NCBI RefSeq assembly: GCF_963678635.1 | Contig: NC_087064.1 | Location: 32,617,028-32,681,027, forward strand | DNA from: Symsagittifera roscoffensis | Lineage: Eukaryota | Direction: 5' to 3' | Length of the DNA stretch: 64,000 nt | Shown: piece after piece, positions 4,396 to 56,035 of the stretch | Position numbering within the stretch: position 1 is the first letter of the stretch | Layout: every line of letters starts with the position of its first letter | Position numbers and translations under genes: made by a program | The notes under the pieces: model-generated | What the model was told of the DNA's origin: nothing | The model's input: only the letters and a program-made list of their open reading frames with translations | Databases searched by the model: none

Positions 4396-4806
4396 TAGAT
4401 CCGCCCGTGTCTGATAGAAAAATTTCGCTTTGACTCACCGGTTTTGCCGTCTTCAGTTTTTTGTTTTCATGTAAGCCATTTTTTTTTCTTGCATTTTTGC
4501 TTGCATGTAAGCTATTTTTTGACCTGTACTGTATGGTTTTATCTATTGACCCTGACAAATTTTGCTATACGCGATGATGGTTTTACTTATGTTCATATGG
4601 TTGGCATAGATTCACCCACATTGTCTACTTGAACTATCTGGCTCAGTCTGTCCTGTTGCGTTATAGTAGTGACATACAGATGAAGCCTAGCCGGACTTTT
4701 AATCATTAGGTATCACCTCTGTGCTCTATGCGAGCCTCAATTTGTTCCTCTGTCAGAAGTTTTTCGAAGCGATGAAACGTGTCTTCTTATTTAATCACTT
4801 GATTTT

Positions 4807-7627: not shown

Positions 7628-7924
7628 TGTGGCGCACTCTCGTATCCTGTAAGATCTAAAAAACCTGGTTCAACATCTGTAAATTATCGGCAATTTAAAC
7701 AGATAGTATGACAATATAAAGATAATATAAAATAAGGCAAACATCTTCCGGTTAACATGTTATCAAACGGTTTTTTCCACAATCTCAAAAATCTATAAAC
7801 ATTTTGATGGCAAACTGACCTTAATCGGACAAACCAGTAGTTTTCAAGGCCTTTTGTCTAAGCAAATCTTTTTTAGCTTTTTCACTTTCGCGCCATAATG
7901 ACGTCATTAATTTAAGCGCAAACA
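7628..7924 (-). repeat. 3' LTR in element orientation, 297 bp
   Basis: TGTGGCGCACTCTCGTATCCTGTAAGATC...CATAATGACGTCATTAATTTAAGCGCAAACA. Five differences from the other LTR copy. Confidence 0.85.
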
Positions 7925-8316
7925 TCTTCCGCGCCCAAAGGAGCAAAAACGGGTGCGAGTTTTACGGCCGGTCGAGTTAGCTCCCCGGAGCGGGTGGTAA
8001 CTACGGCGGATCGGGCTATGTTGTCTTTTCCGTAATTAAGGGTTTTTATACGAGCCAGAGGGTAGTGTCCCCTTGGGTTGCGTTCGTCAACAATCCACAC
8101 TAAATCCCCTGTTTTTAAAATAACGTCACTATCGGAGTGCCACTTACTGCGTTTATTCAGCGCTGGCACATAATCTCGCAGCCAACGACTCCAAATTGCG
8201 TTGGCGTAGCTTTGCGCTCGGATATATTGCTTTCGATGGTCGAAGTGCTCCTGGAAAGAGAGAGAAGGAAAGCTAGTACCATTTCGGCCTAACAAAAAAT
8301 GATTAGGAGTTAACAC
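7912..8316 (-). pseudogene. Integrase C-terminal segment of BEL pol, shifted in frame from the main pol ORF
   Basis: 134 aa: MLTPNHFLLGRNG...DLVWIVDERNPRGHYPLARI...; continues the DDE integrase that ends the 1017-aa ORF in another frame. Stop lies just inside the LTR. Confidence 0.6.
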
Positions 8317-8429
8317 CTCGAAACCATCCAGACTTGCACTTACTGATGTTATAGGTCGAGCGTTCAGTGATTGTTCTACAAGACAGAAAGTTGTTTCAAG
8401 GACTTCGGGAGTGAGCTTTCTACTTCCTA

Positions 8430-11400
8430 TTATTGCGTAGCATACCCTTTTACAACACCGAACGAGACGTTCCCAAGAACCCCTGTGATGCGGGGCTGCC
8501 GGGGGTTAAATTTCCACTTAATACCCTTTTTCGCCAGCTCTGGGGGTGCTTGATCGTTCCACGACTGAATACAATTTAAGAGTTCTTTCTCGGCTCCCAC
8601 AAAATTGGTGCCGTTATCAGACCAAATGACTGATGGAGTGCCGCGACGGGCTATGAATGTTTCGATTCCCATTACACACGAACTCGTGTCCATGGATGAG
8701 ACAATCTCAATATGTACAGCTCTGGTGGTCATACATGTAAAAAGGAAGCACCATCGTTTTTCAGAACTCCTCCTGATTGAGACGTAAAAGGGTCCAAAGT
8801 AATCAACACCACAGTTTGTGAAGGGAGGCTGGCGGTAACCAAGCCTTTCAACTGGAAGCTCTGCCATCATAGGTGTGACAGTTTTGGCTTTGCGCTTCCT
8901 ACATATAAGGCAGTGGACTTCAATGGACTTCAATAAAGAGCGAAGGTTCAAGATTGCGAACTCTAAGTGAATTACAGCTCGCAGGTAGTCTAAGAACTGG
9001 TGCTGATAGCGATAATGAATATCACTTACGAACAATTTCACCAAAGAATGCCTTCCATCAAGGATTATGGGGTGTTTTGTGTCATATTCAGTTTCAACTA
9101 GGCGGCGAATTCGCCCAGTTGAACGAATGAGGAATGCAGGACCCATAAACGGTGCATACTGTGCAATACGACTAGACTTTTTGACGTTTTTGTTGCAGGA
9201 CAGGAGTAAATATTCCGCTTCAAAAGATTCCTTTTGGGAAATTAACAAAAGTCGTTGTTTGGCGGTTTCTAATTCAACCGGATCGGTTATTTCCTTGACT
9301 TTAGTGCGGTAGTGCCGGTGTTTCGGACTAAGTCTGAGCATGAAGGCAACCACTCGCTGGAGTTTACGAAACGAGCTGAACTTTTCCCATGCAAATAAAA
9401 TGGGTTGTTTTTGTTTTTGTGCAACGTTTGAAAAATTAGAGGCCTGCTGTAAACCTTCATTAAGGTCACAAGCGGGACCAGCCAGGCGGATTTTCTTAAG
9501 TATTTCTATGCTCGGCTTGAAAGGCCACTCGCCACTTTTCAGCAGACTTGGCCCGTTCACCCAGCTGCTTGTTTTTAAGGACTCCGCTGAGATTCCTCTG
9601 GTTCCCGTATCAGCAGGGTTGTCTCCACTTAAGACATGAAACCACTGATCTACGGTCGTACTTTCTAGAATCTCTCCAATCCGGTTTGCCACGAACGTGG
9701 GTTGCTTACTACCTGAGTTTAACCACTGGAGCACAGTGGTGCTGTCAGTCCACATGAACGTGTTTGACACAGGAATGGTTAGAGCTTTGAGGACATCTTC
9801 CTTCAAGCGGGTAGCGAGTAACGCGGCCTGCAGTTCAAGCTTCGGGATGGAAAGCGCTTTCATGGGCGCCACTCTTGCTTTTCCAAAGACGAAGGCAACT
9901 TGTGTTTCGAGTGAAGTTTTCACACGGGCGCGAAGAAAAGCTACAGCACAAAAAATTTCTTCTGAGCTGTCACCGAACATGTGTAACTCAACCCAATCGA
10001 CTGGTGCGGAGAAGTAGCTGCGCTTTATACTCATTTTCCCTAGAGATGGCAAACCAGAGTGCCAGGCAAGAAATTTTGTCTTGATATCAACGGGTAGCTG
10101 ATCATCCCATTGTTGACCATGAATGCGCCAGATTTCTTTCAACAATAATCGGGCTCTTACGGTATAGGGCGCTACGAGACCTATGGGGTCGAAAACGGAA
10201 GAAACAAAACTTAACACTGTTCGCTGTGTTATCGAATTTTTAAGTTCACGGTTGACACCACGGCTTACGACCAAAGTGTCGTCAATATGGTCCCACTTCA
10301 GACCAAGAACATGAGAAGAATTATCCCCACAAGTTACAATATTTTTACTTTCCTGTTGCGGCGCGCTTTGGGGCGGGTTTAACTCTTTATTAATTTTAGC
10401 TACGTTACTTATGAATTTAGTTAATTTAAAACCACCTAGAGCTAACAGAGTAATCAACTCTTGACTCATTTTAAATGCAACATCAGGGTCCTCAAAGGAG
10501 TCAAGGTAGTCGTCCATATAAAATTTCTCTAGAACTGCGGATGCTGCGTCAGGGAACATCGCCTGATTATCCATTGCAGTCCGTTGCAATGCATAATTTG
10601 CACACGTTGGCGAATCTCTCGCTCCAAAGATATGTCTGGTGTACTGGTGTACAACCACATCGGCTGTGGGGTCCTCCCGCCACAGAAAACGAAGAGATGG
10701 TTGGTCCTCTGGAAGGACGCCGACTTGTAGGAACATCCCTTCAATGTCAGCCGATACGGCAAAATGATGTTGACGAAAACGGAGGAGAACGAACACAAGG
10801 TTTTGCAGTAGGTCGGGTCCTACTAGCAACGATTTGTTCAATGACGTACCATGGAATTTAGACGCTCCGTTAAGGACACGCCTCACTTTACCAGGTTTGT
10901 TTGGGTTCACCACGGGATGGTGGGGAAGATACCACTCGCGTATGCTGCGGTTCGAAAAATTATGGGGAGGAACTTGAATCACGTATCCTTTACTCAAATC
11001 ATCTTCGATAGTTTTTGAGTATTGATCCCTTAAGTGAGGATCTTTCGCTAAACGTTTTTCCAACGATTTTAACTGAACCAAAGAGGAATAGTAATTATCT
11101 GGTAACATGATAGATTCTTCTGCCCAAAGCATACCTACAACGTATCTTGATCCATCGTGGACGGTGGAGGAATCAAGTATTTTAGCCGCCCTTTTGTCTT
11201 CGGCTGAACGGGAATCAACCTGTTTGTAGGCTCCGTATGACTCTATTTCATACCAGCGTTTGATTTGACAAGCTAGTTCGGTATCATCCGTATTGCACTT
11301 GAAACAAGTAGAAAGGAAACCAGTAGATGTCGGCATTGGGCCGCTCAAGACCCAGCCTATTGGAAGGCGAACCGCGACGGGCGATGTGTTTGGATCGGCC

Positions 11401-11483
11401 TCACTCTTGAAATACTCCTCAGGCCGAATAGCATGGAAGGAGTCTTGACCAATTATTAAGTCTACATCGGCGTAGCTATACAC
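8430..11483 (-). CDS. BEL/Pao pol: protease C-terminal region, reverse transcriptase, RNase H and integrase core
   Basis: 1017-aa ORF. Motifs: VDLIIGQDSFHAI...VAVRLPIGWVLSGP (Peptidase A17/DUF1758 region), FYMDDYL (RT), GDSSEE...TDSTTVLQWL (RNase H), HIEIVS...WSDNGTNFVG (integrase DDE). Confidence 0.85.
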   Translation of the reverse strand: MYSYADVDLIIGQDSFHAIRPEEYFKSEADPNTSPVAVRLPIGWVLSGPMPTSTGFLSTCFKCNTDDTELACQIKRWYEIESYGAYKQVDSRSAEDKRAAKILDSSTVHDGSRYVVGMLWAEESIMLPDNYYSSLVQLKSLEKRLAKDPHLRDQYSKTIEDDLSKGYVIQVPPHNFSNRSIREWYLPHHPVVNPNKPGKVRRVLNGASKFHGTSLNKSLLVGPDLLQNLVFVLLRFRQHHFAVSADIEGMFLQVGVLPEDQPSLRFLWREDPTADVVVHQYTRHIFGARDSPTCANYALQRTAMDNQAMFPDAASAVLEKFYMDDYLDSFEDPDVAFKMSQELITLLALGGFKLTKFISNVAKINKELNPPQSAPQQESKNIVTCGDNSSHVLGLKWDHIDDTLVVSRGVNRELKNSITQRTVLSFVSSVFDPIGLVAPYTVRARLLLKEIWRIHGQQWDDQLPVDIKTKFLAWHSGLPSLGKMSIKRSYFSAPVDWVELHMFGDSSEEIFCAVAFLRARVKTSLETQVAFVFGKARVAPMKALSIPKLELQAALLATRLKEDVLKALTIPVSNTFMWTDSTTVLQWLNSGSKQPTFVANRIGEILESTTVDQWFHVLSGDNPADTGTRGISAESLKTSSWVNGPSLLKSGEWPFKPSIEILKKIRLAGPACDLNEGLQQASNFSNVAQKQKQPILFAWEKFSSFRKLQRVVAFMLRLSPKHRHYRTKVKEITDPVELETAKQRLLLISQKESFEAEYLLLSCNKNVKKSSRIAQYAPFMGPAFLIRSTGRIRRLVETEYDTKHPIILDGRHSLVKLFVSDIHYRYQHQFLDYLRAVIHLEFAILNLRSLLKSIEVHCLICRKRKAKTVTPMMAELPVERLGYRQPPFTNCGVDYFGPFYVSIRRSSEKRWCFLFTCMTTRAVHIEIVSSMDTSSCVMGIETFIARRGTPSVIWSDNGTNFVGAEKELLNCIQSWNDQAPPELAKKGIKWKFNPRQPRITGVLGNVSFGVVKGYATQ

Positions 11484-14311
11484 AATTGGTTTGATTGGAG
11501 CAAGGTACGGATACTTGCAGGGATGTTGACGGTATCGGTACCGACTTTAAGTTCATCCTTGACAAATGCGGTTAATTCGAATATGTATTCGAATCCATCG
11601 AAGTTAGAAGATACCTTCATCTGAACTTGTTTCGTTTTAACAACAGTCGTTGTGTTAATACCATTTACTGTGAGATCCAAATCTCTTCCTGAGAGATTCA
11701 GACATTTGACTAATTTAGCCGATATCCAGGAATGACTAGATGCTGAGTCACACAATGTTAAACAATCAGCACTCTGGAAATCGGTGGAAACTTGGAGCTT
11801 GATTATGGGCAGTAACCCTTTCGATGTTATGATTGATGATTGGTCGTTCGAGATTGCGCAACTTACATCCAACGGAACGGGATTAATGTCTGCATGATTC
11901 GAACTTGCGTTTGGTATATTCTTGCTGAATGATTTTCGATCAGCGTTTGTGCTCGCTTTATCCGGCTCTGCATTAGATCTTGGTTGACCAGCGTTGGGTC
12001 TTGTATGGCTATCATTTTTGTCCGGATTTCGACTAGGAAAAACACGTTCAGCCCCATGGAGAAGTACACTATGGGTGCTAGTGCAACCTGGTTTGGTGCA
12101 TTTCTTTGCTCTGGGACATTGCCGGAATGCGTGGTTCCCTTGTAAGCAGGAGAAGCACAATTTGTTTTCCGCAGAGAATTTTGCACGTTGTGTTGGAGTT
12201 TTCTCCTTAAACACAGAACACTTCCACAAGGCATGTTTCCCCTTGCAGAGGATACAAGAAGGATATTCAAACTTTTTCTCAACTGTACTTGTCGAGGCAA
12301 AAACTCTCGTTACAGCTTTAGTTTTGGATGGCTCTTCGACTTTGGGCTTTCCAGGCATATTTTTCATTTGCTCATGAGCTTCTGCTTTATCCTTTAACCA
12401 ATTGTTAAAGTCAATTAGGTTGGGGCGTGACCAATTACGTTTCACGACAAAAAGTGACCACGATTCTCTCATGTTTGGTGGAATTTTCGAAAGAGCTTGA
12501 TTTAACAAAGAGACGCTTTTCAAATCTTCTTCATAATCAAGAGACCTAAAGACAGCCACTAGACTTGAAATGGTCATCGAGAAGCTAATGATGTTCTCAG
12601 AGTTGTGCATTCGAAGCTGCGGGAAACTGGACAACTTATCAAGGTGGGCCGTAATTACGTTTTGTGGCTGGCCAAACTTTCTTTCTAGAGTTTTCAGAGC
12701 ATCTTTATACATTCTTCCATTGTATGCGAACTCTGCTATGGCTGACTTAGCTTTTCCCGTGACTAATGTTTTTAAATAAGTCAACTTCACATCATCGCTT
12801 AGGGACGCTGCGTCTACAGTACTGCAAAATTGGCCAAACCATTCGTGCCATTGGAGCGGGTTGCCATCGTACTGGGCCAGCTTCCATTCTGGAAGGGGAT
12901 CCTTCTTTGAGACTGACAGAGCTTGGACTAAGTCATTCAGTTTCACGGCTTGCGGTTGGGGAACTGGTTGCAACGACGGCAATGTGTTGCTAGGATCAGC
13001 TGCAAAAGGTTGCTGCTGATATATGTAAGTGTTTTCAGCCGATGCGTCGTGATTGGGAAACCCATAGTAAACGGTACCACCACTTGATACGTGGGGGAAT
13101 TGTTGCTGAGATATTGGCGTTACGGATGAAAAAACACCAACTGATGGGTTTGTGTTACCATCACTTGTTACCCCAGTGATGCATTGGGTGACTGCGGGTG
13201 TCCACTGTGACATTAGTGGCAAGTTGGGCTGACTAATAACGGCAGGCTGTCCGCTAAAAGGATTGTTCACTGACGCAGGGTTGCTATACACGTTATGTGA
13301 TAGCAAGTTTTGATTTCTGCAGATTAAATTTGCAGGTGGTTGTGACACAATGGCATGGGGGGTGTATCCAGAGTATTGATTGGAGATGGCGGGCATGTTT
13401 CCAACAACTCGGGAATCGTTATTGAAGTTGTTGACGGGGATATGTTGAATGGAAGACGAAGGATGAGGTACAGAGAAGTAACAGCATACCGGAGTATTGG
13501 TAGCTGCTGTTCCAGCTGGATTAAAAAATGATGATGTATTGTTTTCGCAAAGTGTAGCGTTATTGGAAATAAGCAACGACTGCGTTTCGTGCTCAGGATT
13601 AGTGGATACAGCGTGCTTGATTCCATCGCCATCGCTGAAGGAGACGGTTGGTTGATAGGGATAACATTGTTGATCACAATCAAAAGTCCGATTCGGCAAC
13701 GATCGCCGAGGTGAAGCTTCCGCTGTGGACACATTTCTGTGTTGATGCGAACCACTTTCTATATTTATACAGTTTTCAAACTTTGAAGAAGACGGAGCTA
13801 CCTTGGGTCCTTTTTGGTTTTCTAATGCATGATCAACCCAATCGTTTACCCTGTCAGAACGACGATCAACCGAAGACGCCAGCTTGAGATGCTGATCTAT
13901 TTCAGACTCTTCGAGGTATTCAGTTTCAACCATTTTTGCTTCAGCTACTTTAATACGATTTTCTTCGCTTAATCGTTCCATTTCAAGCCGACTTTTTTCG
14001 ATTCGTAAACGATGTTCTTGCTCTTTACGGTCAATTTCAAATTTAATTTCTTGTTGTTTTCGTTCCATCTCAATCAGATGCTGTTGCTCTTCGATGATGG
14101 CTTCCTGTTGTTTCAGTCTTAAGGTTGCTTCGTGTTGTTTTTCCAACTCTTCTCGCTTCATCTTTGCTAGGAGCAGCTCTTTGCGGCGCTCACTGGGGGT
14201 CAATGATTTCATTGAGCTTTGCTTACTCGACCCGGATTTTGCCGATTTTGATGAAACTTTTGATCGACTAGTTTCACTGACGCAGACCTCTGAAGCTTGA
14301 TTAGATTCCAT
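11462..14311 (-). CDS. BEL/Pao gag-protease polyprotein
   Basis: 949-aa ORF with a coiled-coil N-terminus and a Q/N/S-rich middle. Zinc knuckles CILCKGKHALWKC and CFSCLQGNHAFRQC. C-terminal aspartic-protease-like LTLCDSASSHSWIS, which is DSAS rather than the canonical DSGS. Overlaps the pol ORF by 22 nt in the -1 frame. Confidence 0.8.
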   Translation of the reverse strand: MESNQASEVCVSETSRSKVSSKSAKSGSSKQSSMKSLTPSERRKELLLAKMKREELEKQHEATLRLKQQEAIIEEQQHLIEMERKQQEIKFEIDRKEQEHRLRIEKSRLEMERLSEENRIKVAEAKMVETEYLEESEIDQHLKLASSVDRRSDRVNDWVDHALENQKGPKVAPSSSKFENCINIESGSHQHRNVSTAEASPRRSLPNRTFDCDQQCYPYQPTVSFSDGDGIKHAVSTNPEHETQSLLISNNATLCENNTSSFFNPAGTAATNTPVCCYFSVPHPSSSIQHIPVNNFNNDSRVVGNMPAISNQYSGYTPHAIVSQPPANLICRNQNLLSHNVYSNPASVNNPFSGQPAVISQPNLPLMSQWTPAVTQCITGVTSDGNTNPSVGVFSSVTPISQQQFPHVSSGGTVYYGFPNHDASAENTYIYQQQPFAADPSNTLPSLQPVPQPQAVKLNDLVQALSVSKKDPLPEWKLAQYDGNPLQWHEWFGQFCSTVDAASLSDDVKLTYLKTLVTGKAKSAIAEFAYNGRMYKDALKTLERKFGQPQNVITAHLDKLSSFPQLRMHNSENIISFSMTISSLVAVFRSLDYEEDLKSVSLLNQALSKIPPNMRESWSLFVVKRNWSRPNLIDFNNWLKDKAEAHEQMKNMPGKPKVEEPSKTKAVTRVFASTSTVEKKFEYPSCILCKGKHALWKCSVFKEKTPTQRAKFSAENKLCFSCLQGNHAFRQCPRAKKCTKPGCTSTHSVLLHGAERVFPSRNPDKNDSHTRPNAGQPRSNAEPDKASTNADRKSFSKNIPNASSNHADINPVPLDVSCAISNDQSSIITSKGLLPIIKLQVSTDFQSADCLTLCDSASSHSWISAKLVKCLNLSGRDLDLTVNGINTTTVVKTKQVQMKVSSNFDGFEYIFELTAFVKDELKVGTDTVNIPASIRTLLQSNQLCIATPM

Positions 14312-16194: not shown

Positions 16195-17135
16195 CCTCCC
16201 CTTCTCCTAACTGGGACGTTTCGGACAATCGGGTCTTTTCGGACAATCGGGTCGTTTCGTCCAATTGGGTCGTTTCGGCCAATTGGTCACCTTCTGACAA
16301 TTTTTGGCTAATTGGACACTTCTGGCCAATTCGGCATCTTCGGGCCACTTTCGGCTTTTGCACAATTTCAGCCAATTGGGTCAAGTTTGGACAAATGTCG
16401 ACTAATTGGACAATTTTGGCCAATTCGGATACTTCAGGGCAACTTTCGGCTAATTGCACAATTTCGGCCAATTGGGTCGTGTTTGGACAAATATCGGATA
16501 ATTGGACACTTTCGGCCAATTGGGATACTTTAGGGCAACTTTCAGCTAATTGCACAATTTCGGCCAATTGCGTCGTGTTTGGACAAATTTCGGCTAATTG
16601 CACAATTCCGGCCAATTGGGTCGTGTTTGGACAAATGTCGGCTAATTGCACAATTTCGGCCAATTGGGTCGTGTTTGGACAAATTTCGGCTAATTGCACA
16701 ATTTCGGCCAATTGGGTCGTGTTTGGACAATTTTCGGCTAATTGCACAATTTCGGCCAATTGGGTCGTGTTTGGACAAATTTCGGCTAATTGCACAATTT
16801 CGGCCAATTGGGTCGTGTTTGGACAATTTTCGGCTAATTGCACAATTTCGGGCAATTGGGTCGTGTTTCGACAAATATCGGCTAATTGGACACTTTCGGC
16901 CAATTGGGTCGTCTCTGGTAAAATTTCGGCTAATTGGTCACTTTCGGCCAATTGGGTTGTGTTTGGGCAAATTTCGGCTAATTAGTCATTTTCGGCCAAT
17001 TGGCTTGTGTTTGGGCAAATTTCGGCTAATTAGTCACTTTCGGCCAATTGGGTTGTTTGGGCAATTTTCGATTTATTGCACACTTTCGGCCAATTGGGTC
17101 GTACTGTCCGGAATATCGTCCTGAAAATCCTCTGG
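16195..17135. repeat. Tandem array of a 48-bp unit (24-bp sub-repeat), about 19 copies, inside the BEL leader
   Basis: Unit CGGCCAATTGGGTCGTGTTTGGACAAATTTCGGCTAATTGCACAATTT repeats with 48-nt phase. Because the period is divisible by 3, long open frames appear on both strands (for example 16067-16951 minus, 294 aa, QLAEIVQLAENCPNTT repeats). Confidence 0.85.
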
Positions 17136-19121: not shown

Positions 19122-19796
19122 ATGATGCAAATGAACGAGAAAATTGAAAAAGAGAGCGAGGGAATACAAGCACGTCTTGAAAATATGGAAAAAAGGCTGA
19201 CCGCATTGGTTGATGAAAAAGTCAAAAACGCTACAAAAACCACATGCGAAAAACTGGCAAAAAGCTATGCAGATGTACTCAGTGTGAAACCTGTTAAAGA
19301 TATGAAAGCTCAACCAGGAGCTGGAAAAGAAGTAAAACAAGAAATACATCAAAAAATCAATCAAAGCTTCCGTATACAGGGGATCAGAGAAGATCCCGAG
19401 AAATCAAAAGGCGAAAATTTTGTCCCCACAACCGCAAAAGTACATGAAGTACTAAACAAGTTAGGAGTTAAACCACAAATTGAAGAAATAAAAAGGCTAG
19501 GGAAATTCAGCAAAGAGCGCATCAAGTCAAGAACTTTATTAATAACTCTGTCAACGGAACATGAAGCACGATTGGTGCTGGCAAAGAGCTTCGAAAAAAG
19601 AGATGAGCTGCGAGATGAGGAAATTTACCTTCTGCCAGCATTATCGAAAGAAGATGCGAGGAAGGAAAACCTATGCTTTAAAAGACGAAGAGAACTTCTA
19701 GACGAAGGAGTTCCAAAGGAGAAAATCAAAATCAGGAAATTCGAGCTGTTCAATGATGGTAAAAAAAGAGATGATAGAAGCAGAACAAGCAGATGA
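19122..19796 (+). CDS. LINE ORF1 protein, 224 aa
   Basis: N-terminal heptad-rich MMQMNEKIEKESEGIQARLENMEKRLTALVDEK, then SFRIQGIRE...NFVPTTAKVHEVLNKLGV...RTLLITLSTEHEARLVLAKSF, resembling the L1 ORF1p RRM/CTD core. Confidence 0.65.
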   Translation: MMQMNEKIEKESEGIQARLENMEKRLTALVDEKVKNATKTTCEKLAKSYADVLSVKPVKDMKAQPGAGKEVKQEIHQKINQSFRIQGIREDPEKSKGENFVPTTAKVHEVLNKLGVKPQIEEIKRLGKFSKERIKSRTLLITLSTEHEARLVLAKSFEKRDELRDEEIYLLPALSKEDARKENLCFKRRRELLDEGVPKEKIKIRKFELFNDGKKRDDRSRTSR

Positions 19797-19827
19797 TGCT
19801 TGACTAGGCTTTCTCAACATCCTGCAA

Positions 19828-20658
19828 ATGAATGTAAGAAGTCTCATAAATCTCGAACGACGAATGAAGTTTGCAAATGCTATAGCAACATCAAACTATG
19901 ACATAATATGTCTCTGCGAGACTTGGTTAAATGAAAACATTGCAGCATCTGAAATAATGCTAAATGAATACAGTATTTATAGATCAGAACGACAAACAGC
20001 CAAAGATCAAAATTTGCACGGTGGAGTACTAATGGCAGTGAAACAAACATTTTCATCTAAATTGTTGCCAAATAAGCAACCTGAATGTTGTTTAACTTGC
20101 CGCATCCAAATAAACGATAAACGAATTATTGTCTGCTGTTTTTACAATCCACCTTCGAGCAGCAAATATTGCTATTGTCTAGGCGATTTCGCACAAATTT
20201 TAAATGAAATCGAGAAATCAAATCAATCAACTGCAACACTTATTTGCGGAGATGTAAATTTTCCAAATGCAAACTGGATTGACTATAGTAGCACGGAAAA
20301 TGAAGAAAACTCAATAATTGAACTAATCGAGCAACATCAGTTCGAGCAGGCAATAAATTTTCCAACTTGTGGCAAAAACATCCTAGACATTACATTATTC
20401 AAAAATTGTCACATTCATGCGACTCCTGACAAAAAATTTTCAAAAATTTACAATTGCTCCGACCACAAAGCAATCAGCATTCTAATTGAATGTCCTCACC
20501 ATGAGGTAAAGGTCGCTATTGAAAACTTTCGAAGCTTCGGTAGCGTGGACTATAACGAAATCAAGAAATCAATACTAAGTGAGCCTTTCTCACCAGTATG
20601 TCACACAAACATCAATAGAATGTGCGAGGAATTTACGACTATTTGGAAAATTTGTTAA
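19828..20658 (+). pseudogene. LINE ORF2 N-terminal part: apurinic/apyrimidinic-type endonuclease
   Basis: MNVRSLINLERRMKF...YDIICLCETWLNENI...GGVLMAV...ICGDVNFPNANW...CSDHKAI, matching the EEP/APE endonuclease signature. Frame is broken at ~20622-20658 before the RT. Confidence 0.75.
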
Positions 20659-22643
20659 ACCAACATGTGGCTAGAAGAACGAGACGTCGCCAATCACTTC
20701 CGCCATTGGTTACGCCAAGTACCTCAAACATCATGAACAAACTGCGAACACAAACTAGAATATACAAATTGAAACCTACAAGCTACCGCAGAAATCTCAT
20801 TCTATCTCTACATAAAATGATGGAAGAAGCAGTAGAGGAAGATAGAGTAAATTATCAGGAAAATTTGATGTCCACTCGTAACACCCATTTAATTTTCAAA
20901 CACTTTAAGAGTCTGAAAAAATCAGAAACTCTCCCAAAGACTATGATCAAGGACGAAATAGCTGTTTCCAAAGCCAAAGAAAAAGTGAACTTTTTGAATG
21001 AATATTTTCACTCTGTATTTTCGCCCAAATCAAGCTTCAACCTCAGTGACATGAAATGCGAAAACACGATATTGAGTAACTTCAGTATCTCAAAAACATA
21101 TTTAAACCAAATTATAACAGAGCTGGACATAACAAAATCGCGGGGCCCAGATGGACTCCCACCAATTTTCTTCCAGCGAACGGCCAGAGAAATGACCACA
21201 GTTTTGCATTGGGTTTTTAAAAACATCAAGAGGTTAAGGAAAATACCAGATAAATGGAAAGTTGCGGCTTTGTCACCTATTTGCAAGAAAGGTGACAAAC
21301 GACTAATGAAAAACTACCGGCCGGTGTCACTCCTCAATATCATGAGTAAACTCCTGGAAAAATGCATGCATCCAGCGTTGTATGACCATTTCATCAAATT
21401 TCTCACAAGAAGTCGGCACGGTTTTGTTAAAAACCGTTCAAGTGTTACAAACATGTTATCTTTCTTGAAAGAAATCTACGAAGCAATTGACAAGAACGCT
21501 GAAAACCATGTGATCGCATTATCTACCGACTTCTCTAAGGCATTCGACAAAGTCCCGCATTACGAACTACTAAAGAAAATGAGCAACCTTGGAGTTGGAG
21601 GCTGTTTCCTTGAAATAATCGCCGACTATCTCAGCAACAGGAAACAATTTGTTCGTGCTGACAATTTCTCATCAGAAACTTTAGAAATTACAAGTGGCGC
21701 ACCACAAGGATCGTTGATTGGTCCATTATTCTTCTGTATCTTCATAAATGATCTTCCTGAAGTATTGAAATTTAGTGACCCATTTATCTTTGCAGACGAC
21801 CTAAAATTACTAGCAGTGAATGAAGACACAAAGGACATCCAGCAGGACCTAAAAAGCGTTGAAAACTGGGTAGATAAAAACAAGATGAGTCTGGCACTGG
21901 ACAAATGTTTTAAAGTCGAATTTATAGGAAATCAACACGAATTTATTCTTTGTGAAACAGCAGTGGAAAGCTCGAATGTGATAAAGGATCTAGGAATACA
22001 TGTGTCCAAACATTTAACACGGACAACCCATATTGACTCAAGAATGTCGAAAGCGAATAAAACGTTCTATTGCATCCGCAGAAACTTAGAATTCAAAGTC
22101 AAAATGCGCATAAAACTTGGTCTGTACAAATCGTTAATACTTCCTGTTCTAACGTATGGTATAATTATTTGCAATATCTCAAGAAGCGACTTAGGGAGAT
22201 TAGAAAGGTTCCAAAAGAAAGTCTTAAAATGGATCACGGGAAACGATTCTGACTATACAGAGCAGCTGAGATTGTTAAACATCCTGCCTCTGGCGTTGTT
22301 TCTCCAGCTGAACGAGTTACTGATGATGGCAAAATTCATGCATGAAGAAAGCGATCACATTAAGCTCCCGGCAAAAATTGAAAATCCAGGAAGAACGAAA
22401 GAAATTTTCAACCTAAACAAGACCAGAACTGAAAAAACTGGAGGAGAGTTTACATTCAGGACCTGCCGTCTAATAAACCGACTAAATCAGAAAATTGAAT
22501 TTCGAGAAATGCGAGGCTTAAAGCGAAGATTGATACAGATGATGTGGAAATTTTTCGACGATCAATTCTCAGAACAAAACAAGTGCACATGGGTCCTCTT
22601 CTGTGACTGCAACATGTGCCGAAATAACTGGACAAAATTTTGA
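20622..22643 (+). pseudogene. LINE ORF2 reverse transcriptase and C-terminal Cys-rich region
   Basis: ALSTDFSKAFDKVPH (RT box 2-3), GAPQGSLIGPLFFCIFINDL, FADDLKLL (YxDD box), C-terminal CTWVLFCDCNMC. Confidence 0.8.
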
Positions 22644-36062: not shown

Positions 36063-37129
36063 ATCTGTTTTTTTTTTTCAAACGAGCAATATTCCGTCTC
36101 AAAAAAAATTGTCTGCTTATTATGTGTCTATATGTTTTGTCTCCTTAGTTGCCTTATTGTATTTTTTTTGTTTTACACAATTAATTTCTTTTTGCTTTAA
36201 ATGTTTTGATACATTTCTGCTATTTGTACTTCGTGTCTTCGTATATTTTCATTTTTTGTCTTTTCTTTCGCTTAGAAACTTTATTCTGCCCAAATGATTT
36301 CGGCTGAATCTTTATCGGCTTAATGACCTAATTTTCAGTCGTTTCAAAGGAAAAGTGTTATTGTTTTTTGCTCATTGGTTTGCATAAATTGCTCTAAATT
36401 TTATTGAAATTTTAGTTAGCTTTTTCTTGACGATATTTTGTTCGGCCTCATATTTTTCGGATAGGTTCTGTATTATATCGGTTTATGGCTCTATATGACG
36501 TGTTTCAACGAGCGAATCAACTTGTGCGCATGTGTGTGTTGAGGGCGAGGAGGAACTAATAATTGTTTATTAGTCTAAGTTTTTGGAATTTTTTATTGGC
36601 ATAATAGTTTTTGGTCTATATTATTTTGGCTTAGTGGTCTCCTGTTGTCTGATTTGACGAGCAATTAAAGTTTTGTGTGTGTGTTTTTAGGGTGAAGGGG
36701 ACTTGTTTTTTTTTCTTGGTTAAGTCTTGGCATGCAAAACTAGCGTTATTCATTCTGATAGATCTAGTTTGTTTTGATTTTTTTTTCGATTCTTTTCCCC
36801 GACTTTATTTATTACACGCAGAGTTAGTGCGGTTGCCTTTAGTTTATTGCATGCAAATGTTGAGGTTTCTGCATTTTAAAGCTCTTGAATCTTTGCCGCT
36901 TTCTCGCTTGTGTTTGCAAATTTACTTTTTCTAGTTCATTTTTCTGCATAAAATTTAGAAAAAACGATCGGTTTTGTTATTTTTGACTCAAATAACGTGC
37001 AAATTTTCTTTGTTTTTCTTTGACACCGTTTTGATGTGCGTCCGATTTCCGTTTTTTTCTTAAGAATTATGAAGGACTTCAAAAAGTTTTTGTTGAAAGT
37101 CATTTTGGTGACACTTAGCTCCATGCACT

Positions 37130-38560
37130 ACTTGAAATTTTCACTAACTGCAATTTGCTGCTCTTTTTGAAATTTTGCTGCACTTCTTGAAATTTTCACT
37201 AACTGTGCAATTTGCTGCTCTTTTTGAAATTTTGCTGCACTATTTGAAAATTTCACTAACTGTGCAATTTACTGCTCTTTTTGAAATTTTACTGCACTAC
37301 TTGAAATTTTCACTAACTGTGCACTTTGTTGCTCTTTCACTAACTTTGCAATTTGCTGCTTTTTAAAAAATTTTGCTGCACTACTTGAAATTTTCACTAA
37401 CTGTGCAATTTGCTGCTCTTTTTGAAATTTTACTGCACTACTTGAAATTTTCACTTACTGTGCACTTTGCTGCTCTTTCACTAACTGCGCAATTTGGTGC
37501 TCTTTTTGAAATTTTGCTGCACTACTTGAAATTTTCACTAACTGTGCAATTTGCTGCTCTTTTTGAAATTTTGCTGAACTACTTGAAATTTTCATTAACT
37601 GTGAACTTCGCTGCTCTTTCACTAACTGTGCAATTTGCTGCTTTTTTGAAATTTTGCTGCACTACTTGAAGTTTTCACTAACTGTACAATTTGCTGCTCT
37701 TTTTGAAATTTTGCTGCACTACTTGAAATTTTCACTAACTGTGCATTTTGTTGCTCTTTCACTAACTGTGCAATTTGCTGCTCTATTTGAAATTTTCACT
37801 AGCTGTGCAATTTGCTGCTCTTTTTGAAGTTTTGCTGCACTACTTGAAATTTTCATTAACTGTGAACTTCGCTGCTCTTTCAGTAACTGTGCAATTTGCT
37901 GCTTTTTTTGAAATTTTGCTGCACTACTTGAAGTTTTCACTAACTGTACAATTTGCTGCTCTTTTTGAAATTTTGCTGCACTACTTGAAATTTTCACAAT
38001 CTGTGCATTTTGTTGCTCTTTCACTAACTGTGCAATTTGCTGCTCTATTTGAAATTTTCACTAGCTGTGCAATTTGCTGCTCTTTTTGAAATTTTGCTGA
38101 ACTACTTGAAATTTTCATTAACTGTGAACTTCGCTGCTCTTTCACTAACTGTGCAATTTGCAGCTTTTTTTGAAATTTTGCTGCACTACTTGAAGTTTTC
38201 ACTAACTGTACATTTTGCTGCACGTTTTGAAATTTTGCTGCACTACTTGAAATTTTCACTAACTGTGCATTTTGTTGCTCTTTCACTAACTGTGCAATTT
38301 GCTGCACTATTTGAAATTTTCACTAGCTGTGCAATTTGCTGCTCTTTTTGAAGTTTTGCTGCACTACTTGAAATTTTCACGAACTATGCACTTTGTTGCT
38401 CTTTCACTAACTGTGCAATTTGCTGCTCTATTTGAAATTTTGCTGCACTACTTGAAATTTTCACTTACTGTGCAATTTGCTGCACTACTTGAAATTTTCA
38501 CTAACTGTGCACTTTGCTGCTCTTTCACTAACTGTGCAATTTGCTGCAACGATTTAAGTT
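37130..38560. repeat. Satellite: ~57-bp unit in higher-order arrangement, ~1.4 kb, inside an intron of the TSR/Ig gene
   Basis: TGCTGCACTACTTGAAATTTTCACTAACTGTGCAATTTGCTGCTCTTTTTGAAATTT repeated about 25 times with variant subunits (TGCACTTTGTTGCTCTTTCACTAACTGTG). Periodic pseudo-ORFs appear on both strands. Confidence 0.85.
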
Positions 38561-38620
38561 AACCAAGTGATTATTAGAATATTAGTCTTTGTCCTAAATC
38601 GTTTTGTTTTGGTGGTGCAG

Positions 38621-38792
38621 GCCTGTCATACTACGAACGTCGGTAAATCATGTGGGCGTGGAGTCAATACCAGGGACTTAGGATGTCAACAGAGACTGGC
38701 CGATGGTACCACTGTACAATCTCAACACTGTGACTTGAAAGATAAACCAAGTAGCTTCCGAGACTGCTACAAACCGTGTCCGGGAGATCAGT
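38621..38792 (+). CDS. Exon: another TSP1 repeat
   Basis: Acceptor GGTGGTGCAG|GCC. Encodes ACHTTNVGKSCGRGVNTRDLGCQQRLADGTTVQSQHCDLKDKPSSFRDCYKPCPGDQ. Donor T|GTAATT gives phase 1. Confidence 0.55.
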
Positions 38793-38858
38793 GTAATTTT
38801 TTTTCAGATTTAATTGCTGCTTTGTTTACTAAGAAGTTAATAGTAAGGTTATTTTAAG

Positions 38859-39170
38859 TGCTGAACTTGACAGTTTTCAATCTCTCTCGGACGTTCTTCG
38901 TCAAAAAGGGACAACCAGTGAATTTGTCATGTGCCTTGGACTGCCGATTTCCAGGCTCAACTTTTTCGTGGAAAATAAATGGCGAACTGGACAAGACGAG
39001 ATTATCGGCGAAGAAAGATTATTATATTGACAGCTTTGAACCCGAGAATCAAGCTGGCCTTTATACGTGCTCTATAAACATTCCAGAAATCTGTTACTCC
39101 AGGCATAATAAAGCAAATACTAGTCCAGAATGCAGATGCCAAAAACAGCTCAATTTCACGCTTATCTTCC
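38859..39170 (+). CDS. Exon: immunoglobulin-like (I-set/V-like) domain
   Basis: 66-nt intron with TTTTAAG acceptor, and phase 1 matches the previous donor. Encodes LLNLTVFNLSRTFFVKKGQPVNLSCAL...STFSWKINGEL...YYIDSFEPENQAGLYTCSINIPEI, with the Ig hallmarks C...W...Y.C. Donor C|GTAAGT at 39171 (phase 1). Confidence 0.6.
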
Positions 39171-39343
39171 GTAAGTTTTATTTGCTCGTTTTAAACTTTG
39201 CGTGCATTTTTGCGCCTTTAAAAATAATGCTGGAGTAAATAAAACATTAACACTTCTGTAACATGTCTTGATTGGAAAAGTTTTGAAGACAGAAAAGAGA
39301 ATACTTTGAAGTTGATCAAGATTTTTATCTTGTTTGTGTTCAG

Positions 39344-47959: not shown

Positions 47960-49480
47960 CACCGAGTTTAAAATAAGCAGCCCAATAGTGGTACGCTGTC
48001 AGGATTCCCCAAGGGGTTGCGAATTTGGCCTCCAATTAAGAATGCTCAAATCCTTTTAGTGTACGAGTGCGACGATTACAAAATAATTTACAAAACATGA
48101 AAATCCCAACTCTGTAGTTGGGTGCTTTCAGAGTACTCTCGAGGATTGCGAATCTTTTCTCCAAATGTGACGGCTCAAATCCTTGTAGTTTCCGAGATAT
48201 GACGTTTTTTGTGATTTTTTTTTTAAATTTTCAGAAAACTTAAACGAAATTTTTTTCTTAAAAATTTCACATTCTCAACCATGTATTTGGGGGCTATCAG
48301 AGTACTCTCAGGGGTTGCGAACCTTGCTTCCAATTATGACTGCCCAAATCCTTGTAGTTATCGAGATATGACTTTTTTGTGATTTTTTCAAAAAATTTTC
48401 AGGAAACTTAAACGAAATTTTTTCTTCAAAATTTCAAATTCTCAAACATGTAGTTGGGGGCTATCAAAGTACTCTCAGGAGTTGCGAACCTTGCCTCCAA
48501 TTATGGTTGCTCAAATCCTTGTAGTTTTCGAGATATGACTTTTTTGTGTTTTTTTTTTCAAAAGTTTTCAGAAAACACATTACAAAATATTTTAGAAAAC
48601 TTGGAATTCTCAACCCTGTATTTGGGTGCTATCAGAGTAGTCTCTAGAATTGCGAATCTTGTCGCCAATTATGACGGCTGAACTCCTCGTAGTTGTCGAG
48701 ATATGACGTTTTTTGTGATTTTTTCAAAAAAAATTTCAGGAATTTTAAACGCAATTTTTTGTTCATAATTTCAAATTCTCAAACCTGTATTTGGGGGCTA
48801 TCAGAGTACTCTCAGGGTATCGAACCTTGCCTCCAATTATGACTGCTCAAATCCTTGTACTTTTTGAGATATGACCTCTTTGTGATTTTTTCAAAAAACT
48901 TTGAGGAAACTTAAACGAAATTTTTTTCTTCAAAATATGAACTTCCCTTCCCTGTAGTTGGGGGCTATCAGAGTACTCTCAGGGTATCGAACCTTGCCTC
49001 CAATTATGACTGCTCAAATCCTTGTACTTTTTGAGATATGACCTCTTTGTGATTTTTTCAAAAAACTTTGAGGAAACTTAAACGAAATTTTTTTCTTCAA
49101 AATATGAACTTCCCTTCCCTGTAGTTGGGGGCTGTCAGAGTACTCTCAGGGTTGCGAACCTTGCCTCCAATTATGACAGCTCAAATCCTTGTAGTTTTCG
49201 AGATGACGTTTTTTGTGATTTTTTTGAAAAAGTTTTCAGGAAACTTCAACGAATTTTTTTTTTCAAATTCTCAACCATGTAGTTGGGTGCTGCCAGGGCA
49301 CTCTCAGTCGTTGCGAATCTTGCCTCCAAATATGACTACTCAAAAATTTGTAGCTCTCGAGATTTGACGTTTTCGGGATTTGACGGAAAATTGGAATTAA
49401 AAAAAGTTTATAAAGTTTGAAATTACCAACCCTGTAATTGGGTGCTGTCAGAGCACACTAAAAGCCTGCAGATCTGGTTT
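47960..49480. repeat. Satellite with ~165-177-bp unit, about 9 copies
   Basis: Recurring GGGGGCTATCAGAGTACTCTCAGGGGTTGCGAACCTTGCCTCCAATTATGACTGCTCAAATCCTTGTAGTTTTCGAGATATGAC...AAACGAAATTTTTTTCTTCAAAATTTCAAATTCTCAA, with landmarks at 48118, 48289, 48466, 48627, 48791, 48962, 49126, 49290 and 49443. Confidence 0.85.
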
Positions 49481-51360: not shown

Positions 51361-53381
51361 ATGGCTTTAACAAGTTATTAAATGACGCACAATAACTTTT
51401 CTGCCAAAGTTCTTTGTTGTTCCCGAATAGCCGAAATATTTGCTTAACTATGGGACTTAAAATGCAAACTCTGATTCACGCCGTATAATTCTCTCGCAGA
51501 ATTTAAGCGCAGCGGAGGAAGAGCGCGGTAGTTGCCATCATCGTGTACTCAATAAGTATATTTATTTTGCTACATTTCAATATTTTTGGGTCAGATCCGA
51601 GAGAATTTTTTTGTGAGCGGAGTATTTGACTTTGTGACATGCACCCAAGTTATAGAGGTTTCAGAAAAAGTCCGGATGTGAATGGTTTATTGGTGTTTGC
51701 TATATTGACGTGAAAGCTCCCTCAGTTTTACGTTAAGGTTTTTTTTTAAAATGAAGTATGCCCTGATAGTGCATTCGGGTACTAGACGTTTTTCCCTTAA
51801 ATAACTTTGTTCACAGAATAGTCAGTTTTATAGAAACGATAAATTTCTGAAAGTTCAAAAGAACTAATCGTCATTTAGGTAGTCAATAGGTGGAGTCTGT
51901 TTCTGGTAAATTTCTTGAAAAAATGTCATTTTTTGCTGATTTGTTGTTTTCGGTCTAGTTTCCGATTTTTCATGGCTTTTGTTTGAGCTGGTTCTGTTTT
52001 TCAGCTTACTTTGTAAATTTTAGATTTTTTTATTTAAAATTTTTTGCTATAATTTCTCTAATTTGTCATTTAACCAAGTCTGGTTTTCATGAATTCATTT
52101 TTTTTTTCAATTAAAGGTTTGCAGCTTGTTTTATCGTCTTAGTCAGCTTATAATGCGTAGTTCTGAGGACACACAAGTTCATGTAAGAGAAATCAAGGTA
52201 TTATGAAAATGTATGGGATTCATTTTTCATTTTAATTAATTTTGAGATTTTTCGGAAATTTTTTCATTTATCGCTTAGATTTTAATTTTCCTCAAAAGCT
52301 ACTTCACCGATTTTCAAAATATTGGACCAATGGAAAGACCGGTTACTACATTGTGCGTCTGCATATTTTGCTAGTCATTTTTCTTTGCAGTACTCACCAT
52401 CGACGACCTTTGAAAATTTCAACGGGGGAATGTTTTTTTCGTTTTTTTTTTTGCTTTTTTTTCTCAGAATACCCTGCCAAATCTGAGATAAAGGTTTCAA
52501 TGGAAGGAAAAGATAGCAGGGATCTTTTTTACATACGCCGCTACGCGTTAATTTTTAAAGAAAGTCGCTCCGCTTCGCCTTTGTTTTTAAAATTGATGGC
52601 CAGGCTCTTTCCAAGACCAACGTGTTTTGACGATGCTCCCTTCTGTTATGAATCAAAATTTTTAAAAAGTTAAATCCGATTAGCTCTCATTTATTGCGTA
52701 AGTCAGGATTTAATTGCATTAAGTTGAGTGCAATACCGGGCAATCAAATTGCGTTGTCTTAGCAAAACAGAGAATTTACAAAGTAAATTTGAGAAATTCT
52801 CACATAGTTATAGAAAGGTTATTTATACATCTGAAAGGTTGATTTCGAAGACCGCGGATTGATGCAAGAAAACGAGGGAGAAATGCGCATTTTTTTTTCG
52901 TTGCATGTGTCGCATATGAAGTAATATCAGTTGATCTAAGACGATATTGATAAAAGTTCTAATGAAAATAGAGAAACAAATAGAGAACAAGAAAATTATT
53001 ATTTTTTTTCGATAAGAACATGAACTAAAAAAAAAAGAAATCATGACTACAATATAATGCAAATAAAAGCTAAAAATTAGAGTTAGTTGTTCTGTCATTT
53101 CTTGAGTATGCTATCACTTCCGTCAGAAAAACCACAGCTTTGAAAAAGATTTCGAAATATCTCGGAGCCTTATCAATCTCTTTTAGGCATATCAAGAACT
53201 CTTTCGTGTGTATTTCGCCGCTTATCCGTATTTTTTATTAGATTTGAATCATTATCCGAACAGTCTCAAAGTATTATCCGTTTCCGCAAACTATTGCTAC
53301 GGCCTCGAATGACCTTCCCCGTCTTGTCTGTTTTCGCTTCCGGCCCACAATATCTCCCATAAAAACCAACTGAACAATCTC

Positions 53382-54642
53382 GGGGCAGTACAACAGTGCC
53401 GAAGTACAACAGTGCCGAAAATGAAAACTTTGTTCAACAGTGCCGAAAAGGAAAACTTTGTCCAACAGTGCCGAAAGTTTGAATAATGTTCAACATACTA
53501 AGTGCGACAATCAAAAATTAAACAGCGATCGTTTACAATCTTCAGTAAAACTTTTAGATTTTGAGCAAGAAAATTTGCAATTTAGACGTTTTGGCGCCAA
53601 AATAATTGTTTATTTTGAAGTTGCAGACATATTGGCGCCAAAATTGGAGCGATTTTCTTTGATAATTAGCGTCAGTAATTTCCCGCTCTTTAGAAAATGC
53701 GTGTAAATTATTCTGCAATTTTCCCGCCATTTTCGGGCTCTTTTCCAGTTTCCCCCCCTTTCAAATTCAGTTTTGAAAAGCTTATTTAACGTTGTCATAA
53801 TGCAATGAAATTTGGCGTGCTGAACAAATCGACAACTGTGAACAGATTTGTTCTTCATACTTTACAGCGTAACATCACGCATTTAGCCGTAATAACACGT
53901 AGAACAAACATAAAACTCGGTATTTTGAAAGGGGGGAACTGGAAAAGAGCCCATTTTCGGCACTGTTGTACTTCGGCACTGTTGAACGCCCCCACAATCT
54001 CTCCCCTAGAATTGGGGGCGTTCAACAGTGCCGAATAAGGCGGGAAAATATCAGAATAATTCACACGCATTTTCTAAAGAGCGGGAAATTACTGACGCTA
54101 ATTATCAAAGAAAATCACTGCAATTTTGGCGCCAAAACGTGTAAGCTGCAAATTTTCTTGCTCAAAATCTTGAAGTTTTACTTAAGATTGTAAACGATCG
54201 CTGGGGGACCGACATTTTACCAGACCGACCTTTTACCAGAAAAGTTATAATATGGACCCTTTACCAGACTCGATAAACAAATTTGATTGACAGATGTATT
54301 GACGCCGTTTAGTCTGGTTAAAGACAAGGATTTCACGGTTTTTCAGCAAAGTTTTGTTTGTTCTAACCGCTTCTTTTTAGAATCTTCCACTAATTTAAAT
54401 TCATCTTAAACGAATTATGACATTTTGGTCTAATAAAAGGTCGGTCTGGTAAAAGACCTAGCCCCGATCGCTGTTTATTTTTTGATTAATGCACTTAATA
54501 TGTTGAAGTTTGTTCAAATTTTTGGCACTGTTGAACAAAGTTTTCATTTTCGGCACTGTTGAACAAAGAATTCATTTTCGGCACTGTTGAACAAAGTTTT
54601 CGTTTTCGGCAGTGTTGTACTTCGGCACTGTTGTACTGCCCC
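53382..54642. mobile_element. Composite non-autonomous DNA-transposon-like element with long TIRs carrying subterminal repeats
   Basis: The left end GGGGCAGTACAACAGTGCCGAAGTACAACAGTGCCGAAAATGAAAACTTTGTTCAACAGTGCCGAAAAGG... has four CAACAGTGCCGAA subterminal repeats. The right end 54520-54642 is its reverse complement (CGGCACTGTTGAACAAAG... x4 ...CTTCGGCACTGTTGTACTGCCCC). Inner arms 53525-53760 and 53925-54200 are also mutually inverted. A nested 75-bp mini-palindrome lies at 53970-54045, and a further inverted pair at 54196-54240 and 54440-54475. Confidence 0.65.
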
Positions 54643-54689
54643 CTAGAATTAAATGTAAATGACAAATTCAAGCTGTAAGGCTTGCAGGT

Positions 54690-55080
54690 GGCGTCCCTCA
54701 TGCTTGAAGAACCGAATGCTTGAAATTAATTTTAGCTTACTTTCAGCCAATCAGTAAAATCTCAAAGTAAATCGCGAAACTCTCAAAGTAAGAAAATAAA
54801 TCCAGGCCATTAGTGTTAATATTGACCGATTAGATAATAAGCAGATGAGTTTTTGAGATTGAAAAATTCTGATGATTTTGACCTCATTAATCTTGATGAT
54901 TATCTGAATAGTATTGCGGTTGTAACTCGCAATTTGTAATTTTTTTGATTATTTTCCACTGATTTAATACATTTTCTGTTAATATTGACTTCGATTTTGT
55001 GAGAAAGGCATTTAGCCAATAGAAACGCTTAGCGATTTGGATTGGTTAAAATTTTTCAAGCATTCGGTCCTTCAAGCCTG
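54690..55080. mobile_element. ~390-bp MITE-like element with ~40-bp TIRs
   Basis: 54690-54726 GGCGTCCCTCATGCTTGAAGAACCGAATGCTTGAAAT versus 55046-55080 CAAGCATTCGGTCCTTCAAGCCTGAG (reverse complement). The CGAAGGACCGAATG motif is shared with 56394-56475 and 57535-57560. Confidence 0.45.
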
Positions 55081-56035
55081 AGAACCCTCCCCAGGCCTGC
55101 ATATACTATTCACAAATCTCACTGGCTAATAATAGTACTTTTAAACGAGTGAGATATCTCGAAGAAGACGAAAAGAAGGAAACTGAAAGAGTTCGAAAAA
55201 CCAGACAGCAAATAAATGCTTAGAAAAATTAGTTGTTTTTCGAAATTCTTAGAAATCTGGTTTTAACCTCCAACTGACAACTCAATAATTTTGGAGCAGA
55301 AATATCCGACGAGCCTTGTATATTTTTGATTTAACGTTTTCGGGGCGCTTGTTTTTGCAGTAGAAATTTTGATTCCAGCTCATTTTTCGAAATAACTGTG
55401 AAAAGTTATACCATACTAATATAGATTTAATATATGAATAGTAGCTCTGAAGGTGGCCTATGTTTTTTTTGTAAACTATAAAAATCCGATTTATTTTGAA
55501 ATTTTGCTGCAGGCAAATTTTTCTGCGTGCTATTTAAAATTTCAATCGTTTATCAAGATAGCTGTAAATATTTCACATATTTGGTTTCAGCTACCGGACA
55601 CCCATCAAAATTGTATTTTTTGTGAAGAATATGAATGAAAGTAAAAAAGGTTTTTGATTTAGTCAGATTTATTCGGTTTACTTACTACCACATGGAAAAC
55701 TTTGAAAGAAATTCTTTCATTAAGACGGATGGGTCCTGTTTGCTAAACCGTTATGCAGATGACATCAGGAATGAACACAATTGAGGCCTTTGGTGCCGAA
55801 AAATAAGTTGTGATATCATTCAGGTGAAAAAGTAGAATAACCAACACTGATCCCTGCGTAACGACTTAAGCAATATTTGGCATTTAAGATTTTTTCTTGT
55901 TTTTTTTTCAGATATATGATTGGGTTAAATTTCCAACATTTCTTCTGATGACTATAGAGTGAAGCTTGTAGAGAATTATTCGGTGATTAACGGTATCGAA
56001 TGTTTAACCGAAATCAAGAAACAAGCAAACTTTGT

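Follow-up and report, generated by a model that had tools for sequence, protein, structure and literature searches.

A palindromic transposon locus in the acoel Symsagittifera roscoffensis, read as two inverted insertions of one MITE family 4 bp apart

In the 64,000 nucleotides of Symsagittifera roscoffensis contig NC_087064.1 that were analysed (positions 32,617,028 to 32,681,027, assembly GCF_963678635.1; hereafter the window), the block at 53382-54642 is palindromic as a whole, contains a smaller palindrome at its centre, and is bordered by two strings that recur in that centre. The question raised by this locus is whether it is a single transposable element of unusual construction or the product of several ordinary insertions. 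An earlier note had taken the block for one composite element with long TIRs, and suggested that its central palindrome could be an excision- or circle-junction-like relic or a pre-existing mini-MITE. The reading preferred here, which is considered very probable, is that the region consists of two independent insertions of one small non-autonomous cut-and-paste transposon (E), lying 4 bp apart in opposite orientations.

Two collinear copies within the block

The sequence features first described for this block, namely the long inverted arms, the repeated motif, the mini-palindrome and the flank echo, are all present at 53382-54642. The outer arms (53382-53495 and 54529-54642) form an inverted repeat of 114 nt that is 89% complementary. 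The motif CAACAGTGCCGAA, with at most one mismatch, has 12 matches in the 64-kb window, all of them inside 53391-54633, against 0.06 expected by chance. It had been described as four evenly spaced copies at each end; the repetition is real but the regularity is not, since the motif starts lie at 10, 26, 54 and 82 nt when counted from the outer terminus, with spacings of 16, 28 and 28 nt, the right arm carries a fifth motif at offset 110 (a further 28-nt step), and two of the right-arm motifs have one mismatch each. Three more motifs are found at the inner ends, at 53956, 53972 and 54023. The central palindrome, placed by the earlier note at 53970-54045, does exist but spans 53972-54035 (64 nt), with arms of 23 nt (53972-53994 and 54013-54035) that are 100% complementary and 18 nt apart. 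The flank strings ACAATCTC and CTAGAATT were correctly noted to occur just outside the block and again in its centre.

The block divides into two copies of one element. The left copy, E1 (53382-53993, plus strand, 612 bp), has its long end on the left and its short end, the reverse complement of GGGGGCGTTC..., on the right; the right copy, E2 (54014-54642, minus strand, 629 bp), is inverted relative to E1, with the short end on the left and the long end, bearing five motifs, on the right. When E1 is compared with the reverse complement of E2 the two are collinear end to end, with 91.4% identity over 314 aligned columns, and the identity begins precisely at the first G of GGGG, the outer 20 nt being unrelated. 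Both copies have the same polarity, that is, a long end starting with GGGGCAGTAC and carrying 4 or 5 motifs and a short end starting with GGGGGCGTTC and carrying 1 or 2; written as longer strings, the family termini are GGGGCAGTACAACAGTGCCGAA and GGGGGCGTTCAACAGTGCCGAA. In E1 the long end, GGGGCAG followed by the four CAACAGTGCCGAA motifs at the offsets given above, occupies 53382-53475 on the plus strand, and the short end, GGGGGCG followed by motifs at offsets 10 and 26, occupies 53952-53993 on the minus strand. The ends of E1 form a 42-nt inverted repeat that is 93% complementary, and those of E2 one of 22 nt that is 86% complementary.

After removal of the nested inserts described below (N1 and N2) and of one copy of each of their duplications, the core of E1 measures 388 bp and that of E2 359 bp. 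The cores are 90-94% identical per segment; what still separates them is a single 28-nt repeat unit, a single 16-nt unit and an internal duplication of 41 nt. The longest ORF in these elements encodes 88 amino acids and no Pfam family scored above the cut-off in the element ORFs; E, N1 and N2 are all non-coding, and the initial description of the block as TIR-type DNA transposon sequence is borne out, with no coding capacity. The E core also conserves a further palindrome, TTTTGGCGCCAAAA, present in one copy as ATTGGCGCCAAAAT; it lies at 53589-53602, 53630-53643 and 54124-54137, twice in E1 through the 41-nt duplication and once in E2.

Target-site duplications, nested elements and alternative readings

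The boundaries of E1, E2 and N2 were set by homology alone, and those of N1 were chosen. Each of E1, E2 and N2 is flanked by an exact direct repeat of 8 bp and no longer. For E1 the duplicated string is ACAATCTC, at 53374-53381 on the left and 53994-54001 on the right; for E2 it is CTAGAATT, at 54006-54013 on the left and 54643-54650 on the right; and the 4 bp between both duplications (54002-54005) are host DNA that reads directly as TCCC. At the local base composition the chance of one 8-bp match of this kind is 2.6e-5 and that of two is 6.8e-10. The block taken as a whole, 53382-54642, is flanked by ACAATCTC on one side and CTAGAATT on the other, with no direct repeat longer than 1 bp. The central 20 bp, ACAATCTC-TCCC-CTAGAATT, is host target DNA, and because each copy has its own 8-bp duplication the pre-insertion host site can be read as ...CTGA ACAATCTC TCCC CTAGAATT AAAT..., the uninterrupted form of which is AACTGAACAATCTCTCCCCTAGAATTAAATG. 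Read from left to right, the central 20 bp thus hold the right-hand ACAATCTC of E1, 4 nt from the host and the left-hand CTAGAATT of E2, which fully explains the flank echo. The arrangement is one of short ends facing each other, tail to tail, across 20 bp of host DNA. The mini-palindrome is these two facing short ends, and the apparent 350-bp TIRs likewise arise from the arrangement.

Each copy was itself entered by a different element. N1, a 216-bp MITE at 53736-53951 in E1, has TIRs of about 30 bp (GGCTCTTTTCCAGTT...) forming an inverted repeat, and is flanked by CATTTTCG at 53728-53735, repeated exactly at 53952-53959, the latter lying within the short end of E1. Since the N1 termini are G/C, the length of this duplication may alternatively be taken as 6 or 10 bp. 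N2, a 262-bp MITE at 54204-54465 in E2 with termini GGGGACCGAC... and GGGGCTAGGTC..., is flanked by GATCGCTG at 54196-54203 and, as an exact repeat, at 54466-54473. The empty sites are reciprocal: N1 is missing from the homologous point of E2, where the target is uninterrupted, and N2 is missing from E1, where a single site lies within 53523-53531, in both cases precisely at the single-copy target. E, N1 and N2 show no sequence similarity past their termini. In a search of Rfam the best matches were hairpin-shaped plant miRNA precursors over N1, at 38 bits against a gathering score of 230; this identity was discarded as far below threshold, there being no credible Rfam match.

Several other histories could be proposed for such a structure. 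That the block is one composite element with TIRs of about 350 bp, whose internal palindrome is the relic of joined ends left by excision or by a circle, agrees with outer arms that are long inverted repeats and inner ends that closely abut, and is nevertheless considered highly improbable: no target duplication surrounds 53382-54642 while an exact 8-bp one surrounds each half, and the two arms show 8.6% divergence and do not contain the same nested insert. Moreover, a junction formed by the whole block would join long ends and place CTAGAATT before ACAATCTC, whereas short ends are joined here and ACAATCTC comes first, the flank strings standing exactly where two 8-bp duplications predict them (p about 7e-10). 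For the proposal that a mini-MITE already stood at 53972-54035 when a long-TIR element inserted into it or around it, there is the 64-nt unit itself, whose perfect 23-nt arms are made of the same terminal sequence. Against this, the 20-nt 'loop' of the supposed mini-MITE consists of host DNA that goes on into the outer flanks on either side, the 8-mers of the outer flanks would not be expected inside it, and its arms, being the short ends of E1 and E2, align collinearly with the remainder of those copies; next to no weight is given to this reading. The central ACAATCTC...CTAGAATT is the host's original target, which disposes of the circle-junction and mini-MITE proposals alike.

A single insertion that was then duplicated in inverted form, by replication template switching or by fold-back repair, or a palindromic assembly artefact, would account for the palindromic structure overall and for its strong predicted folding (-662 kcal/mol against -286 +/- 12 for shuffled sequences, with 310 of the 478 pairs linking E1 to E2). 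An inverted duplication, however, would have flipped the flank as well and left GAGATTGT beside E2, where E2 instead has its own direct repeat CTAGAATT, and a chimeric assembly is incompatible with copies whose sequence (8.6% divergence), number of repeat units and nested MITEs all differ; this explanation too is scarcely credible. With two insertions of E as the preferred reading, what had appeared to be an exotic composite with a circle-junction relic becomes four ordinary MITE insertions, and the value of the analysis is mainly corrective. It also shows how loci of this kind can be dissected when each member of a pair of copies preserves the empty site of the other's insert. The conclusion is drawn from evidence internal to the locus, namely the collinearity of the copies, four exact 8-bp duplications and two reciprocal empty sites.

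Ends, superfamily and the adjacency of the two copies

In E the offsets of the CAACAGTGCCGAA motifs are 10, 26, 54 and 82 nt at the long end, with 110 nt added in E2, and 10 nt at the short end, with 26 nt added in E1, the 16-nt unit being GTACAACAGTGCCGAA. N2 has a motif of its own, CMTTTTACCAGA, which starts at 10, 26 and 54 nt from one end and at 10 and 26 nt from the other; the absolute offsets vary with the register chosen for each motif, and the spacing of 16 and then 28 nt is independent of it. The motifs of E and N2 are unrelated and the GGGG tip and the spacing are common to both, which suggests related transposases that might use one binding geometry with different specificities; the common spacing is a small, testable clue to transposase geometry. 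The likeness to transposase-binding subterminal repeats that had been pointed out earlier fits the arrangement of the 13-mers, binding itself being a supposition. According to PMC10368747, the asymmetric subterminal repeat arrays of Hermes (hAT) are bound by transposase and needed for mobility, and left/left or right/right combinations of ends are nearly immobile; if E behaves likewise, the E1-E2 block, whose outer ends are both long ends, is not necessarily mobile as a unit.

A mechanism consistent with these features can be outlined. A transposase encoded elsewhere would bind the (GTW)CAACAGTGCCGAA repeats, of which the short terminus has one or two next to it and the long one 4 or 5, would cut at the 5'-GGGG termini, and would integrate the element across an 8-bp staggered cut, whose repair would duplicate 8 bp. 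On the preferred reading one copy entered the host site at ACAATCTC and the other, inverted, at CTAGAATT, 4 bp further on; later a different MITE (N1 and N2, respectively) inserted into each copy, again with an 8-bp duplication.

As to the superfamily of E, a Merlin-like origin is the leading guess and a tentative one, drawn from just two structural hallmarks. These hallmarks, as PMC8101967 gives them in summarising Feschotte 2004, are duplications of 8 or 9 bp and TIRs that always start with 5'-GG; the range of Merlin TIR lengths cited in the same source is 24-462 bp, and Merlin elements are described there as abundant in the acoel Hofstenia, with hundreds of matches. The MITEs of the present locus have in common with Merlin MITEs the 8-bp duplication, the 5'-GG termini (in E, N1 and N2) and a TIR length within that range. 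The termini are GGGGCAG and GGGGGCG in E, GGGGAC and GGGGCT in N2, and GGCTC in N1 when its duplication is read as 8 bp. Among the ORFs of the 64-kb window no transposase was found, including a Merlin-type DDE_Tnp_IS1595 partner, and in the literature no description of subterminal direct-repeat arrays in Merlin was found.

The earlier note had compared the ends with those of hAT, Mutator and CACTA elements. An assignment of E to hAT, ranked after the Merlin-like one, is rather doubtful. The hAT elements Ac/Ds and Hermes resemble E in having an 8-bp duplication, motifs clustered at the tips and an unequal number of motifs per end. The termini of hAT elements are YARNG (CAG.., TAG..), whereas all four termini of E are GGGG, so that the duplication length fits and the ends do not. 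A target preference of nTnnnnAn is known for the Hermes/Ac type (PMC10368747); none of ACAATCTC, CTAGAATT, GATCGCTG and CATTTTCG has T2 and A7 on either strand, which with four sites is weak evidence. A canonical hAT-like MITE in the same window, at 3952-4372 (CAGGGGCGGAT...), is unlike E. CACTA (En-Spm) elements have CACTA termini and a 3-bp duplication, and the assignment fails on both counts, given the GGGG termini and the 8-bp duplication of E. Mutator elements (MULEs) have long TIRs and a duplication that is usually 9-11 bp; this superfamily is not favoured, with 8 bp in all four insertions, which is below the usual length and at the lower limit of what is reported, although G-rich termini are compatible with it. 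For the P superfamily, with duplications of 7-8 bp and CA-type termini, the length of the E duplication fits and the GGGG termini do not.

The order in which E1 and E2 inserted and the cause of their adjacency can at most be inferred. The 8.6% divergence between the two copies implies that the insertion events are old. It is quite possible, if somewhat short of an even chance, that one of the two copies is the daughter of the other, produced by excision after replication and inverted reinsertion 4 bp away, the donor site being restored from the sister chromatid. The two copies at this locus are the only ones in 64 kb and lie 4 bp apart, and it is estimated that with 10,000 copies in a genome of 1.1 Gb (PMC9911081) a second one would fall within 20 bp by chance with a probability of about 4e-4; in addition, P elements show local hopping and re-use of occupied sites (PMC2577343). 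The same divergence and the difference in repeat number, however, make a common origin so old as to be indistinguishable from independent arrivals, and an insertion hotspot would look no different. Because chance proximity within 20 bp is estimated at below 1e-3 when the family is taken to have as many as 10,000 copies, some form of targeting is likely, and the adjacency of two independent insertions may reflect a local hop, tethering to transposase-bound ends (homing), or a sequence hotspot.

The closest documented case is the P-element singed-weak allele of Drosophila, in which two inverted P elements occupy one target site (Roiha et al. 1988, as related by Linheiro & Bergman 2008, PMC2577343). 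Common to both loci are two defective, inverted copies of one family, 8-bp duplications and a palindromic double element; the singed-weak copies, however, occupy one target site and lie 8 bp apart, whereas here distinct 8-mers lie 4 bp apart and the elements 20 bp apart. The P termini are CATG and those of E are GGGG, and the E family has no known transposase. It could further be imagined, as an improbable extension of these ideas, that transposase sitting on a resident copy's short end tethers incoming copies (homing) and leads the family to build inverted pairs regularly, that host transcripts running through such pairs form hairpins of several hundred bp which feed small-RNA silencing of the family, and that the 16/28-bp spacing of E and N2 marks one transposase lineage with a fixed multimer geometry.

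Hairpin potential, searches for further copies and the surrounding window

If transcribed, the block would, judging from the predicted fold given above, yield a long hairpin, and it may be a source of small RNA. Mu killer is an inverted transposon duplication that silences Mutator via small RNA. Like Foldback (FB) elements and Mu killer, the present block has long inverted arms that consist in part of tandem subrepeats and would form a hairpin if transcribed; here, however, each arm is an element that inserted separately and has a duplication of its own, and not a TIR of one element.

The status of E as a family is based on two copies, on which its ends and its duplication length were seen. 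BLAST of 53301-54720 against the whole 64-kb window returned nothing outside the locus. In a scan of JGI metagenomes for paired motifs 14 matches were obtained, nearly all in GC-rich contigs and every one an unrelated tandem repeat. A scan of GTDB genomes with a 22-nt terminus gave one match, in bacterial coding-like DNA, with about 0.5 expected by chance, and a scan of IMG/VR gave none; a literature search for the 13-mer retrieved primer coincidences only, and the motif is absent from an ENA contig that carries a 67%-identical Pao element and is probably from another species. Two of the JGI contigs (L009 at 150-330 and L013 at 1240-1340, GC 0.56-0.57) hold four TTCGGCAACAGTGCCGAA palindromes next to GGGGACTGGAG; this array overlaps the E 13-mer but lies in GC-rich, probably bacterial DNA, and is judged a coincidence.

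E, N1 and N2 are three undescribed MITE families, of a known kind, in an acoel genome. Exact ends, duplication length and the layout of candidate binding sites are given here for these three families. In S. roscoffensis 85% of the repeats are LTR elements (PMC9911081), and DNA transposons are a small and poorly characterised minority.

Other mobile sequences are present in the window. About 50 bp to the right of E2, at 54697-55082, lies an element of about 390 bp with inverted arms of 29 nt that are 93% complementary (CTCATGCTTGAAGAACCGAATGCTTGAAA...); no clean target duplication was found at its ends. The hAT-like MITE at 3952-4372, with termini CAGGGGCGGAT..., has an exact 8-bp duplication, ATCCGACC, within the stretch 3944-4409. 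A second copy of its right end, at 4379-4409 (31 nt), is 90% complementary to the left TIR of this MITE and is the better-matching of the two; its start falls within the right-hand duplication, which gives the impression of an additional solo end or partial copy lying directly against the element. On the minus strand, 7912-14311 is a Pao/BEL LTR retrotransposon whose ORFs contain DUF1759 (gag-like), Peptidase_A17, integrase and DUF5641 domains, and its pol ORF matches two RefSeq proteins of S. roscoffensis at 95-98% identity. A non-LTR retrotransposon occupies 19122-22643 on the plus strand, with an ORF1 of unassigned family, an endonuclease (Exo_endo_phos) and a reverse transcriptase (RVT_1), and its ORFs look largely intact.

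Satellite-like arrays are located at 16273-17102, 37124-38548 and 48100-49381, with, in the same order, a 48-bp unit repeated 17 times, a complex array of 57/141/262-bp units, and a 167-bp unit repeated 7.7 times. At 38567-39238 on the plus strand, two in-frame ORFs separated by a stop codon contain thrombospondin type 1 (TSP1) and immunoglobulin domains and are probably exons of a host gene; the immunoglobulin ORF had no match in the protein database. The GC content of the window ranges from 33 to 46% per 2 kb, which is consistent with the 36.7% of the S. roscoffensis genome (PMC9911081).
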